From Octopus vulgaris (Eukaryota): a DNA stretch of 64,000 bases. Made by a program: the position numbers and the translations under genes. The DNA is taken from NCBI GenBank assembly GCA_951406725.2, contig OX597815.1:210242001-210306000 (forward strand), written 5' to 3'. Every line of letters begins with the position of its first letter. Within the stretch, counting starts at the first letter, position 1. This document shows, in pieces, positions 45,336 through 59,618 of the stretch. Under the pieces are notes generated by a model that worked only from the letters and a program-made list of their open reading frames with translations, was not told where the DNA came from and did no database searches.

Positions 45336-46182
45336 TATTTATAAATAGTGTAGCATAATTAATGTGGATAACATTCAAAAGCCGATTGAAACACTGATAT
45401 TACTGTTAATGATTCATCCGTCATTATATCACTAGGAACAGTAAAGTCTACACGTCTCTGGGGATGTTTGATATGACCGAAGCTTCTCCCAGTTTATTCC
45501 ATATTTTGCTGAAAAGATCAAAATACTACTAATCGATTATATGATTTTCTATTATTAAACACATAAATATTTGTATATAACTTTTAAACGTGCACTATAT
45601 ATATGGTGAATCTAAGTAATGTGTTTTTATTTTAATATATATAAAGACTACTGTGTCAGCAGAGAGCAACTCGAATTATGTAGTTTGAACTTCATTAGCG
45701 GTGATAAAGCTGATGAGAGACATATTCTGCTGAATATGGGTAGGATGAAATCGACTTACGATAAGCAGATGAGGATGAAATTTGTACTGTGTGATCGATA
45801 AATTAAAACTTGTGTGAATATGTGCTACATGAAAGGTGAATAATAAAGAGACTTACAAACTTTATACGCTTGATTCAAACGAGATAGGGAATATTTGGCA
45901 AATTCAATACAGTATCATTGTGCTTGTGACAGAAATACAAGCGTCTGCTCATTTCGCTCCAATGAACACCCCAGCCAAATCCTGTCATAAGACGTTGAAT
46001 AGTTGGGAAATGACTATCAATGAGCGCGGGCTACTAACCCCAAGATTCCTACGTTCACTTTGCAGCAGCAGAATTATCAGATAATAAATCCACTGTAATA
46101 TAAAACTCACCATTCTTTGTCTTTATTCTCGTTACCAATGTATCCCTATGTCTTTCGCTCTTCTTACCTCTACATATGACTA

Positions 46183-48490: not shown

Positions 48491-49841
48491 TGGTGTCGAT
48501 GTCTTGGACAAATCTTTCCTCTTGCTCACTAATCACTTATTGCACTATGATTTTCAATGAAGTAGTCAAGATGACTATGCAGAAAGAGTACAACAGGGGT
48601 CGCCACCAGCCCCTGTCGGAGCCTCGTGGAACTTTAGTTGTTTTCGATCAATAAACACACACAACGCCCGATCTGGGAATCGAAACCGCGATCCTCGGCT
48701 GCCCTAACCACTGGGCTACTACTGCACTACCACATTTCTGAAATACAAAACATCTAAACATATATTCAATGCAATTTTCACCTAGGAAAAGTATTTTCAG
48801 AATCGCCAACATTTGTAAAGTAAGCAAATGCAGATTTGTGATGGTAAAGTTCAATAAATAGCATACATACCATGACGTTCTTTCTCCAGGTCTTGACAAA
48901 TGTCACCTTGACCCATATGACTTTAGAATTAGAAGATCAAAGGCGCATTCAAAATGCCAATTTTCATCATAGACATTCAACAAAACATGTCTCACTTAGT
49001 CTTCAATGTTAGCCATTCTGACTAAATCAAGCACAGTGTAAGCATATGTATAGTCAAATTATACAAATATGAGACGTATGATATCAAGAACCACAGAAAT
49101 GTGTTGCTTATTAACATCGATTTGCTTATATGTCGATTTTTATCTACATTATTTACAATTGACGGATATTTGTCCTCATCATGTATGGTATTAACACAAT
49201 GTTTCGGCTAATATAACATCCAGCTTTTATGAGATCCTGCGTTCTCATTCCAAAAGTATTTTTCGATGTTATTGTTATTATTATTATTATTATTATTAGT
49301 AGTAGTAGTAGTAGTAGTAGTAGTAATACTATACTTATTATCATTATTATTGCCTGGAATCGACAATCTTGGGGTTAGTAGCCCGCGCTCTTAACCACTA
49401 CGCCATATGCCAGTGGGCGATTATGGAGTGAATTTTAGAGCTTATAAATCTAATATTCTCTTATCCTTCCTTAATACCCGTTCCCATATGCTGTTCATAT
49501 CTGCACTCGGTCTGCTTAGGAGGTTGTTGTGTCCTAGCATATGTGTTGCTTCTTTTAGTTTTCGTATTTTCCAGTGGTGTTATGTGTCTATTATTTTAAC
49601 TTCATCCCACAAGGGGAGTTACTCTCTATTTTTCCATACATGATCAGCTATACCCGATTTATCAACATTTCCCCATGTCACAGCCTTGCGATGCACCTCT
49701 AACCTTATTTTGTGGGGTGGCATGTTTCGCCTTTGTATAACTAATCTCAGCTGCACGCAGTTCTTAGTCATATTCGTTTCTAATGGTGATTTTACTCGAA
49801 GGAGATAAGCTCTAAAATTCACTCCATAATTGCCTACAGGC

Positions 49842-49901
49842 ATATGGCGTAGTGGATAAGAGCGCGGGCTACTAACCATAAGACTCCGATTTCGATTCCT
49901 G
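49842..49901 (+). promoter_or_regulatory. tRNA-like Pol III (A/B-box) head inside the PLE pLTR
   Basis: A-box TGGCGTAGTGG, anticodon-arm-like gggctactaacc, B-box-like TTCGATTCC; inverted copy at 49354-49408; partial copy at 46021-46060. Confidence 0.7.
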
Positions 49902-49914
49902 AATAATAATAATG

Positions 49915-49971
<57 letters not shown>

Positions 49972-50027
49972 TCTACACCAACAACACCATCGAAAAATAT
50001 TAGAACCCAGACTCGAAATTTCCCCAA

Positions 50028-50073
50028 GACACCTGATGAAGGCTGGAGGGTATATCAGCCGAAACGTTGTGTT
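50028..50073 (+). ncRNA. Minimal type I hammerhead ribozyme
   Basis: gacac CTGATGA a ggctg-gagggtatat-cagcc GAAA cg TT gtgtt; palindromic AACGTT stem III as in PLE minimal HHRs. Confidence 0.78.
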
Positions 50074-50515
50074 ATCAACAATCAAGATGATGACAAATAT
50101 CCGTTAATTATAAATAATGTAAATAATGTACATAATTCTTCATCTCTTAAATATAGAATATGTCGTTTCTGATATTAGCATGGCATTTAGATCTTCACTG
50201 AATATAAATAAATAAAACCTTAGAACAGGCGGTCAACAGCTGGACTCGGCTGCTCCACACTGATAAGGAGAAACTACCCCGAAACAGTTGTGTAGATGTC
50301 AAGCCAGTACAGGAAAGCTGATGACCTCCCCTGTGCGAAGGTTTTGTAGACAGAGATTTGTGCATCATATAGCTAGCCAGAGGCGATCGCCTATAGGAGC
50401 TAATCAACAGCAGCATTCGTTCTATTTATCTGAACTGCCACGTTATCCACCCCAAAATTCGCTGTTTCAAAATTCATTCTTTTGCTTCCTTGCATATATA
50501 TGTGTATATATATAT

Positions 50516-50841: not shown

Positions 50842-51727
50842 TATCGGGAACAATTAATTCTTGCCGTGCTCTCGTAGTCATAGATGTTATACTCAATGTT
50901 TTGTAGAACTTATGTTTTTCTGTAGTTCATACAAAATATGACCTTCGCTGAAGAACTCATAATACTCAATAATAGTACTCATATTCTAATGTCGCAAGAA
51001 TTCTATTTCGTCAACTATTTCCTTCAGATGACTGCAAATAAGATGAAAAATAACAAAAGCGAACACTATTGAACCGTTTGGTATTCATCACTTGGCGCCA
51101 ATGGAAGTTTTGGTGAAAAATCTACATGAAAACAATCATTCCATTATTGGAATGAATCTGATTTCCCGATTAATATAGCGTGATATTGATTAAACATTCC
51201 TAGTCTCCGCTTATTTTAAACAGTAGAACATCTCATATTTCGTATAATTTACCAACGATATATATTTCACATATATGACAACTGCATATATTTCACAGGT
51301 TTATATAACAGAACAACGACATCTGGTTTTAACAAATACTTAGCTTTCATATATTGATAATTTCATCTGCTTTGGTTATTACAATTCCCTACAATTCATT
51401 TCTGATAGGGAACGAAGTGAGTAGGGAGTAATTCAATTAAATAAGACTACAGATAGTTAACTTAGTGATTCATGATCCATAACTTGGAAAGACAATTTGA
51501 TTTAGATTTGGAACATGCTAGTGATGAATGGCACTATCTTAATTCATAAAGTCAATATAAAACTATAAGCATGAAGTCGTAGTGGATACCTATGACATCG
51601 ATGAATACTTAGTATTCTAATTTATCGACTGTATCAGGGGGACATGAAAGGGTGAAGCCGGTGGGTTTGAAATTGAAATATAGATGAGCAATCCTTAACG
51701 TTGACGTATTCAATATATTATTTTACC

Positions 51728-52665
51728 AAAGGTGGCGAGCTGGCAGAAACGATAGCATGCCGGGCTAAATGCTTTGCGGTATTTCGTCTTTAGGTTCTGA
51801 GTTCAAATTCCATCGAGGTCAAATTTGACTTTCATCTTTCGTGGTCGATAAATTAAGTACCAGTTGCGCACTGGGATCGATTTAATCGACTAGCCCCCTT
51901 CCCAAAATTTTCGAGCCTTATGCCTAGAGTAGAAAAGAATGTATTATTTTATCAAAGGCGGCTAGCTGGCAGAAACGTTAGTACGCCGGGCGAAATGCTT
52001 TGCGGTATTTCGTATGCTGTTACGTCCTGAGTTCAACTTCCACCGAGGTCGACTTTGCCTTTCATCCTTTCGGGGTCGATAAATTAAGTACCAGTTACGC
52101 GCTGGGGTCGATATAATCGACTTAATCCGTTTGTCTGTCCTTGTTTGTCCTCTCTGTGTTTAGTCCCTTTGTGGGTAGTAAAGAAATAGGTAATTCGTCT
52201 GCCGCTGCGTTCTGAGTTCAAATTCCGTCGAGGTCGACTTTCATCCTTTCGGGGTCGATAAATTAAGTACCAGTTACGCGCTGGGGTCGATATAATCGAC
52301 TTAATCCGTTTGTCTGTCCTTGTTTGTCCTCTCTGTGTTTAGCCCCTTGTGGGTAGTAAAGAAATAGGTAATTCGTCTGCCGCTGCGTTCTGAGTTCAAA
52401 TTCCGTCGAGGTCGACTTTCATCCTTTCGCGGTCGATAAATTAAGTACCAGTTACGCACTGGTGTCGATATAATCGACTTAATCCGTTTGTCTGTCCTTG
52501 TTTGTCCTCTCTGTGTTTAGCCCCTTGTGGGTAGTAAAGAAATAGGTAATTCGTCTGCCGCTGCGTTCTGAGTTCAAATTCCGTCGAGGTCGACTTTCAT
52601 CCTTTCGCGGTCGATAAATTAAGCACCAGTTACTCACTGAGGTCGATGTAATCGACTTAATCCGT
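51728..52665 (+). mobile_element. SINE family A monomer plus tetramer (178-bp period)
   Basis: Head at about 51957; body junctions at 52189, 52367 and 52545. Confidence 0.93.
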
Positions 52666-53492
52666 CGATTAAACCTAATGTACGCATAATCTAACCACTG
52701 AATTTCTGAATGCCTAGAATATTGCTCTCGTGCTCCTATAAATCTTCACGTGTTTTAGAAAATAACAATTTGAAAATACTATAGAATTTTAGCAAATAAC
52801 ACAACTAGCACAAAATATACCAGGAATTCTCGGCGAAAAAGCTGCTAATACGATATGAATTCTAAACAGAGCAAATGATTATTATGTAGTGGAGAACGAT
52901 TTTTACATTACTTACATTAAAGAATTAAGCTAGAAGGAAAGTATGGTAGTTTAGGGAAAGTTTATACTTCCAGCTGTAATTTGCACGACTAATAAAAATA
53001 AATAGCCATTTCTGAAGAGAAAATTGCCAAGTTTACATCTAACGATTCACATGCACAATTTATTAAATATCGATATCATAAAATATTGTTTCACTCTTCT
53101 CACACAACATGTCTTACTCTAGAACATTTTTTTCCCTACTTTAATTTCAGACATTTTAAATCCTGAACACTGACTTTTATCTTAAATATCATTTTAAACC
53201 CTGAATACATCATACTTATTTCCTATTGAGCATTCTTAGCCATGTTTAAAGTGAATAGATATGTTCACTATCATTCTCCATAATGTATCTACAATTTGCT
53301 TCTCACGATACATTTTCACAACTTCAAATGTACTCTTAATATATTTTCACACTTCAATAATAAAAATGATTTTTACTTTATTAAACATGACGCTAAAAGC
53401 ACTTTTATGATCATGTTGTTTTGTTGTTGTTTTTATTTGTCATTTACAAAAGGGAAAATTATCTATCCCCAGTACAAATGATGACTGCTTAC

Positions 53493-59296: not shown

Positions 59297-59618
59297 GTGA
59301 GGGCGCGTGGCTTAGTGGTTAGGGCATTCGGCTCATGATCGTAAGGTTGTGAGTTCGATTCCCGGCGACGCGTTGTGTCCTTGAGCAAAACACTTTATTT
59401 CACGTCGCTCCAGTCCACTCAGCTGACAAAAATGAGTTGTAGTTGTATTTCAAAGGGTCAGCCTTGTCACTCTCTGTGTCACGCTGATTATCCCCGAGAA
59501 CTACGTTAAGGGTACACGTGTCTGTGGAATGCTCAGCCATTTGCACGTTAATTTCACGAGCAAGCTGTTCCGTTGATCGTATCAGCTGGGGCCCTCGTCG
59601 TCGTAACCGGCGGAGTCT
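59297..59618 (+). mobile_element. tRNA-derived SINE sharing the family C 3' body but with a different head
   Basis: tggcttagtgg A-box, gagttcgattcc B-box, tail gagaactacgttaagggtacacgtg... Confidence 0.85.

Follow-up and report, generated by a model that had tools for sequence, protein, structure and literature searches.

The window analysed here is a stretch of 64,000 nt from the genome of Octopus vulgaris (contig OX597815.1), and its interval 49128-50165 is a single old insertion of a Penelope/Poseidon-type element. On its minus strand lies the end of an ORF truncated on the 5' side; an inverted arm, tails of unequal length and a target-site duplication of 7-8 bp complete the insertion. An 8-bp direct repeat flanks the whole structure, which therefore represents one event: the copy is truncated at its 5' end and carries an inverted arm. 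Since both arms belong to this one insertion, they do not constitute independent evidence. Its features are listed below, with positions -33, +58 and +90 counted from the first base of the tRNA-derived head or from the hammerhead cut, as indicated.

49128..49135, no strand: left copy of the target-site duplication, ATATGTCG, 7-8 bp, direct repeat
49140..49197, minus: minus-arm tail, whose end lies +58 nt beyond the hammerhead cut, at the first 3'-end cluster of the family
49192..49235, minus: decayed hammerhead, core CTCATAA, 5' side of stem I deleted
49269..49351, minus: (TAA/TAC)n array of the minus arm
49352..49412, minus: minus-arm head of tRNA origin, with an intact A box (49405-49395) and a B box disrupted by a deletion
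49413..49444, minus: ORF stop codon and spacer ahead of the head; predicted to pair with the head start as the 5' arm of a hairpin
49445..49807, minus: broken, 5'-truncated C-terminal part of a Penelope/Poseidon-type ORF (endonuclease region)
49805..49837, plus: start of the inverted arm, a spacer beginning at position -33 relative to the head
49838..49900, plus: tRNA-derived head of the plus arm; A box at 49845-49855, B box damaged, 3' end of the head deleted
49902..49969, plus: (TAA)n array of the plus arm
49970..50027, plus: linker, in which the family's first in-frame ORF ATG sits; this ATG is deleted in the window copy
50028..50073, plus: minimal type I hammerhead motif with palindromic AACGTT and no stem III loop, an architecture as in PMC4209133
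50074..50158, plus: tail of the plus arm, the 5' part of the ORF, ending +90 nt past the cut, the second 3'-end cluster of the family
50158..50165, no strand: right copy of the target-site duplication, direct repeat

Over 325 aligned columns, the two arms share 76% identity (E 1e-61 in a within-window comparison), and the minus arm, separated from the left duplication copy by four unmatched bases, carries its parts in the same order as the plus arm. An earlier reading of the window made from its letters alone (the sequence-only reading) had proposed this order of tRNA-like head, (TAA)n array and hammerhead for both arms; the order stands, although the B boxes are damaged in both. In the plus arm, the A-box-like 11-mer TGGCGTAGTGG occupies 49845-49855 and a B-box remnant, TTCGATTCC, lies at about 49890-49899. 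Relative to the family-majority B box, GTTCGATTCC, the plus arm has suffered a G>T change and lost the 3' end of the head, whereas the damage in the minus arm is a deletion. The plus-arm hammerhead features stem I GACAC/GTGTT, CTGATGA at 50033 and GAAACGTT, with a predicted cut after 50068 at the triplet GUU, and the description of this motif as intact at 50028-50073 and of its minus-arm counterpart as decayed near 49192-49235 is borne out. The plus arm was also correctly said to lack TTTT between head and hammerhead, as no run of at least four T residues occurs from 49837 to 50170; the minus arm contains one TTTT, at 49255. The ORF piece between the arms, previously described as a GIY-YIG fragment, does resemble the C-terminus of a Penelope-type protein (19/40 positions identical to P0003), but Pfam called no GIY-YIG domain on the family frames tested, including those from the ORF end.

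A one-sided tail is typical of Penelope-like elements (PMC8557442), and the different ends of the two window arms, at +58 and +90, fit this pattern. Sequence from upstream of the head is present in both arms, as far as -33 and -410, so the window copy is linked to the ORF and is not one of the short copies that start at the head. Neither ARAGORN nor Rfam called the head or the hammerhead in the window, and no tRNA or hammerhead was called by them in a second locus (L024) either. Chance is nevertheless excluded for both features, since exact 35-mers from them match the genome 2,568 times (head) and 2,631 times (hammerhead), compared with no matches for reversed controls.

Other repeats were noted in the window. 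A lone 28-nt piece of the same head lies at 46022-46049, and further tRNA-like SINE heads are found at 59300-59375 (plus) and 48655-48730 (minus). The segment 50562-50826 is a MITE-like inverted repeat, with 129-nt arms that are 85% complementary, lie 7 nt apart and are flanked by (TA)n, while 51712-52698 holds four to six 178-nt SINE-like units in tandem.

The element family and its tRNA-derived head

By every sequence feature tested, the family is a Penelope-like element, and the domain order and motifs point to the Penelope/Poseidon clade. A natural 569-residue frame at locus L183 matches RVT_1 in Pfam (E 2.7e-6); of the 7,999 candidates scored against it, 2,744 are relatives at E<=1e-30, and some of these carry GIY-YIG (PF01541). 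Across copies, the family ORF comprises 827 codons and starts at an ATG just upstream of the hammerhead; it features DKG at 298, YVDD at 527 and, toward the C-terminus, VYSI/YKGET at 718-729. A frameshift near codon 139 of the majority sequence was rejected as an artefact of an A-run, most natural copies being in frame. In copies that retain an upstream repeat, the tail passes directly into the ORF and is therefore its 5' part; locus L317 holds a full-length copy with direct repeats. Among 70 loci picked by the hammerhead, 33 contain inverted pairs and just three contain same-strand hammerhead pairs within 900 nt. The motif itself occurs as CCTGATGAA in 125 and as GAAACGTT in 106 of 259 copies, the commonest variants lying at CpG. 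Rfam returned no hammerhead match in the sequences tested, and the putative ribozyme is identified by its motif.

The family tail (50107-50156, plus strand, in the window) contains a GT...AG stretch of 38 or 47 nt behind an ATG. Its removal would fuse the ATG-led frame to the ORF, and the unspliced RNA is also in frame from the ATG ahead of the hammerhead; a 9-nt indel within the stretch preserves the frame. No splice joint for it was present among the matches listed, and the reference copy is deleted at this point. At L299:1198-2229, four to five units of ~250 nt are arranged head to tail, each consisting of linker, hammerhead, tail and ORF start without the tRNA-derived head, and the minimal hammerheads in this tandem could pair as dimers. 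At five loci (L068, L070, L093, L140 and L144), pieces of another LINE lie directly behind the (TAA)n array; they look like R4/Dong, a TAA-repeat targeter, and the one at L068 includes a 447-residue frame with a weak zf-RVT match. A non-coding repeat that recurs among the copies has inserted into the array at L072, L138, L170 and L407. The family is also found in sequencing data sets from five organisms, and the two RNA runs examined cover its ORF, head and hammerhead.

The tRNA-derived head belongs to the autonomous element itself. Among 20 loci anchored by the last 44 residues of the ORF, the window copy included, the head or at least its A-box part follows the ORF stop in 17, and the other three end earlier; the earlier proposal that the head was copied as part of the element is thus upheld. 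The majority head has full tRNA length and is collinear with tRNA-Arg(TCG), its best match (score 15.5, z 7.1 against shuffles) among the genome's tRNAs compared, almost all of which were Arg, Ala, Cys, Thr or Lys tRNAs, so its tRNA-like character was rightly recognized. The SINE head at 59300-59375 (plus) aligns to it better than any tRNA compared (score 20 versus 15.5); for this reason, and given the few isotypes in the comparison, the donor may have been a host SINE. The majority A and B boxes match the Pol III consensus. The acceptor and T stems are mispaired or decayed, and the head is not an intact cloverleaf by ARAGORN, which called none of 161 head copies at its default score and four at 90%. 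At non-CpG sites, conservation among copies is 0.91 for the A box, 0.96 for the B box and 0.91 for the remaining head positions, so the boxes do not clearly stand out. Each of the 30 copies selected with the 5' half of the head continues into the B box and (TAA)n array, and 25 reach the element body. A separate SINE joining the same head to a different body was considered and rejected, as none occurred among these 30.

Ends of the copies

The pile-up of copies at the first base of the head is new here. Genome-wide, the 2,568 exact matches of the 35-mer from the 5' half of the head compare with 440 for a 35-mer just upstream, 20 nt away, and with 42 for one spanning the tail-ORF junction, all 35-mers being CpG-free or CpG-tolerant. 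By a rough estimate, the genome holds 17,000 copies of the head and 2,500 that are linked to the ORF, with a wide error (exact-match rates of 4/78 and 9/51).

Individual 5' ends were placed relative to the first tRNA base in three samples. The first consists of 93 of the first 100 listed matches of an exact 35-mer from the 3' half of the head (856 matches in total); 24 copies start inside the head, 51 at -8..+5, nine at -13..-22, and nine extend into the ORF. Hence, 60 of the 69 head-reaching copies stop at the head start, nine of the 60 being fold-backs judged by eye. The second sample, 73 copies in 70 loci, was chosen through the hammerhead alone. A head on the same strand is present in 40 of them, whose starts fall inside it in 11 cases, at -17..+5 in 20 and in the ORF in nine (two of these nine are a duplicate pair); 20/29 head-reaching copies thus stop at its start. 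In the third, 30 copies picked by the 5' half of the head, with five loci shared with the earlier samples, two start inside the head, 25 at its start and three in the ORF, so that 25/28 stop. Some rows in these samples are the two arms of one insertion. Positions were measured on a separate alignment; the pile-up majority lacks 9 spacer nt from the backbone copy. The stop rate per nucleotide is 7.6% and 5.0% at the head start, compared with 0.5-0.8% within the head and 0.06-0.5% upstream of it. The commonest single 5' end is the tRNA first base (10/93), and 22/93 ends fall 1-8 nt upstream, at -1..-8. At +9..+11, the 3' foot of the predicted hairpin, none of the three samples has an end.

The fold-backs are informative on the upstream side, since the template bases -8..-14 are missing from every one of the 17 head ends that have an inverted A box (9 loci), and their templates therefore ended by about -7. 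Junction-bearing copies that reach the head start pass it in 3/5 cases, compared with 9/69 (Fisher p 0.028; small numbers), and some long RNAs therefore begin upstream of the head. Within the junction-bearing copies, 6/66 have a 5' end within 5 nt of the cut site, where a rough estimate predicts about three. Short and ORF-linked copies are equally diverged (0.93 versus 0.93), the exact-match samples showing no age bias, and no fixed diagnostic base separates 147 head-start from 97 ORF-linked copies in 264 columns, a small sample relative to the thousands in the genome.

At the other end, 77 of the 93 copies of the first sample reach the element body; none of the 77 ends within 5 nt of the hammerhead cut, and 73 pass it by more than 15 nt. 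Similarly, none of the 73 copies of the second sample ends at the cut site. The 3' ends instead form two clusters inside the ORF start, about +50-62 and +90-105 beyond the cut, which recalls the two RT start sites of PAc. Two copies (L313 and L314) begin at the head, at -3 and -4, and extend 510 and 340 nt into the ORF. Because no copies of the two samples end at the cut and these two run through it, the RNA that was copied carried an uncut hammerhead. Self-cleavage may still yield a 230-nt product, but such an RNA is not the mobile unit. Hammerheads without a stem III loop are described as not cleaving as monomers and cleaving little as dimers (PMC4209133).

Relation to known elements

The closest parallel is the PAc element of Anolis carolinensis. 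Like PAc and other Penelope/Poseidon elements, the octopus family has RT followed by a C-terminal endonuclease region in one ORF, and it shares with PAc the partial tandem pseudo-LTRs, the inverted 5' arms, a minimal hammerhead overlapping the ORF start, inside which the PAc ORF begins, and two 3'-end clusters ~40 nt apart in the ORF start rather than at the cut site (PMC11167929). Unlike in PAc, the pseudo-LTR of the octopus family contains a complete head of tRNA origin, A and B boxes included, and most head-bearing copies start there; the available text of PMC11167929 and PMC4209133 does not report such a head in a pseudo-LTR.

A Pol III-type promoter followed by a hammerhead is known from the SINE-like SM-alpha and Sj-alpha repeats of Schistosoma; SM-alpha is non-coding and tandem, with cleavage freeing units from multimers (PMC6765202). 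In the octopus family, by contrast, the promoter lies in a protein-coding element, most copies occur singly or inverted, and the RNA that was copied is uncut; unit ends set by cleavage and tandem multimers of the SM-alpha type were not found in the two samples of 3' ends or beyond the three loci with same-strand pairs. Animal non-LTR retrozymes are likewise short hammerhead-bearing units thought to be moved by Penelope-like elements, and they feature tandem arrays, canonical hammerheads and circles (PMC7229834), whereas the octopus family has a minimal motif and a leading tRNA head.

A small-RNA-derived Pol III promoter within the terminal repeat of a retroelement is also found in the TRIMp3 elements Cassandra, Helenus and Ajax, for which an origin by SINE insertion has been proposed. 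These are non-autonomous LTR elements, whose autonomous partners are expected to depend on Pol II and not to carry the same repeat (PMC10886601); in the octopus family, it is the autonomous, non-LTR-type element itself that bears the head. With tRNA-derived SINEs, the short copies share a 5' tRNA head, a simple repeat, a 3' part in common with an autonomous partner and copy numbers in the thousands. They differ in being identical in sequence to the partner's own repeat, with no lineage of their own among the 147 and 97 copies compared. The family shows how a SINE-like population of thousands can arise from the repeat of an autonomous element without a separate SINE lineage, and such repeat-derived short copies are a plausible first step toward tRNA elements mobilized by Penelope.

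Our literature search retrieved no report of a tRNA head in the repeat of an autonomous Penelope-like element, although Repbase, Dfam or supplementary libraries may already contain the family. Such a head is unmentioned in the available main text of a 2026 octopus repeat annotation (PMC13282606) and of PMC7229834, PMC4824008 and PMC8490949. Transcription of Penelope-like elements, and where their template RNA starts, are poorly known. The usual view places the promoter in the upstream repeat (PMC6765202), and Pol II is assumed to transcribe autonomous non-LTR elements (PMC10886601). A sharp 5' end at a captured tRNA promoter, recorded in the copies themselves, is a direct test of the usual view of Penelope transcription. 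The family is also the second to provide genomic evidence that the hammerhead leaves the copied RNA uncut.

Origin of the copies

We consider it somewhat probable that most head-bearing copies begin at the head because Pol III starts their RNAs there, and that these RNAs pass the hammerhead uncut and are copied by the element RT. To this extent the Pol III start put forward in the sequence-only reading gains support, as most head-bearing copies begin at the first bases of the head, where Pol III transcripts would. In the element, head, (TAA)n array, hammerhead and tail follow the ORF stop, and the tail of the upstream repeat continues into the ORF; the 5' ends gather at -8..+5 of the first tRNA base and the 3' ends in the two clusters past the cut. 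In source elements, Pol III would initiate in the upstream repeat, at the head or up to about 7 nt before it, and would encounter no T4 stop within the ORF. For PAc, reverse transcription is placed 111-118 nt inside the ORF; it depends on the first 172 nt of the ORF, and insertion does not require hammerhead cleavage (PMC11167929). By analogy, the octopus protein, presumably made from a separate capped transcript, would bind the 5' region of the ORF, and cDNA would start internally in the tail and run off the 5' end of the RNA, giving copies of 250-450 bp, about half of them with an inverted arm. Short copies would mostly be dead ends rather than masters, because the downstream binding region expected from PAc would be missing. 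A Pol III start would account for the position of the ends, with the tRNA first base the commonest and the 22/93 ends upstream of it resembling a short leader; it also fits the intact majority boxes beside decayed stems and fold-backs that end by about -7. Counting against it are the 3/5 junction-bearing copies that pass the head start and the box positions, which are not clearly better conserved than their surroundings in the head.

The majority unit of 2,610 nt contains no run of at least four T residues (P 0.013 in mononucleotide, 0.063 in dinucleotide and 0.03 in synonymous shuffles), which would permit Pol III read-through. This scarcity is only suggestive, since G4 is likewise absent from the unit and other LINE frames in the same loci, with 1.1 T4 runs per kb, serve as the comparison for the 0.43 of the family copies. 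A more far-reaching version, in which the template RNA is wholly Pol III-derived, starts at the head, reads the 2.6-kb T4-free unit into the next repeat and yields both short and full-length copies, seems to us distinctly unlikely; if true, the family would be an autonomous retrotransposon that codes for protein and yet replicates from Pol III RNA.

The alternative that survives best, which we regard as unlikely yet deserving of weight, is that the head plays no part in transcription and is a passenger, derived from an old tRNA or SINE that became trapped in the 3' UTR; all copies would then derive from long tandem Pol II transcripts, on which RT stalls or folds back at the spacer-head hairpin. 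At -10.8 kcal/mol, the hairpin predicted at -14..+9 ranks second in strength among the 30-nt hairpins of the scanned region and is stronger than hammerhead stem II (-8.4 kcal/mol), and fold-backs are centred on its loop in 9 loci; that short and long copies show no sequence difference also agrees with stalling. However, RT is expected to stall at the 3' foot of a hairpin, and the observed ends lie on its 3' arm and loop, with none at the foot. Moreover, not one of the 17 fold-back ends keeps bases -8..-14, and the junction-bearing copies pass the spot more often than others, in the small comparison given above. Stalling is in keeping with RNA-seq of a related organism, in which no discrete RNA start at the head was seen (two runs of one study, ~6% read, unstranded-looking). 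In these two runs, strand depth is equal, 73-77% of reads continue into other sequence and the depth profile resembles that of DNA, indicating passenger transcription only. Depth at the head rises just 1.6-2-fold in RNA and contigs, compared with 5.8-fold in the exact counts; at the 82% likeness used for this profile, a head so short and so rich in CpG may be under-counted.

It is quite improbable that the short copies are a true SINE, that is, that Pol III transcribes intact head-TAA-hammerhead-tail copies which the element RT recopies without the ORF. The short copies are indeed discrete insertions, with a 5-9 bp duplication at both ends in 4/16 of those without an inverted arm, and they exceed ORF-linked copies about 5-fold. 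However, the lack of any fixed difference from ORF-linked copies and their equal divergence speak against an independent lineage, and thus also against the ribozyme-SINE system suggested from the sequence. A skew in the 9-bp tail variant is not significant once biased loci are excluded (14/34 versus 3/17, p 0.12), no transduced flanks were noticed, and PAc requires ORF sequence beyond its RT start sites (PMC11167929).

Still less can be said for cleavage by RNase P, the tRNA-processing nuclease, which would set the 5' end by cutting long Pol II transcripts at the first base of the head: this base is the commonest single end and the head covers the whole tRNA length, but the acceptor and T stems are mispaired, ARAGORN calls no copy at its default score, and the 22/93 ends at -1..-8 lie upstream of such a cut. 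Equally hard to maintain is the ~230-nt Pol III RNA with a 3' end self-cleaved at 50068 that the sequence-only reading had proposed as the mobile unit; it has in its favour the order of parts, the T4-free stretch from head to hammerhead on the plus arm and the SM-alpha precedent (PMC6765202), but it is already contradicted as the source of the genomic copies by their 3' ends, and the motif is of the loop-less type described as inactive in monomers (PMC4209133) and rarely occurs twice on one strand.

The strongest predicted 30-nt hairpin lies within the ORF, ~360 nt from the linker start (near 1590-1620 in L313), with -14 to -16 kcal/mol. It is a candidate protein-binding or RT-stop site and offers a natural control for stalling at the spacer-head hairpin.
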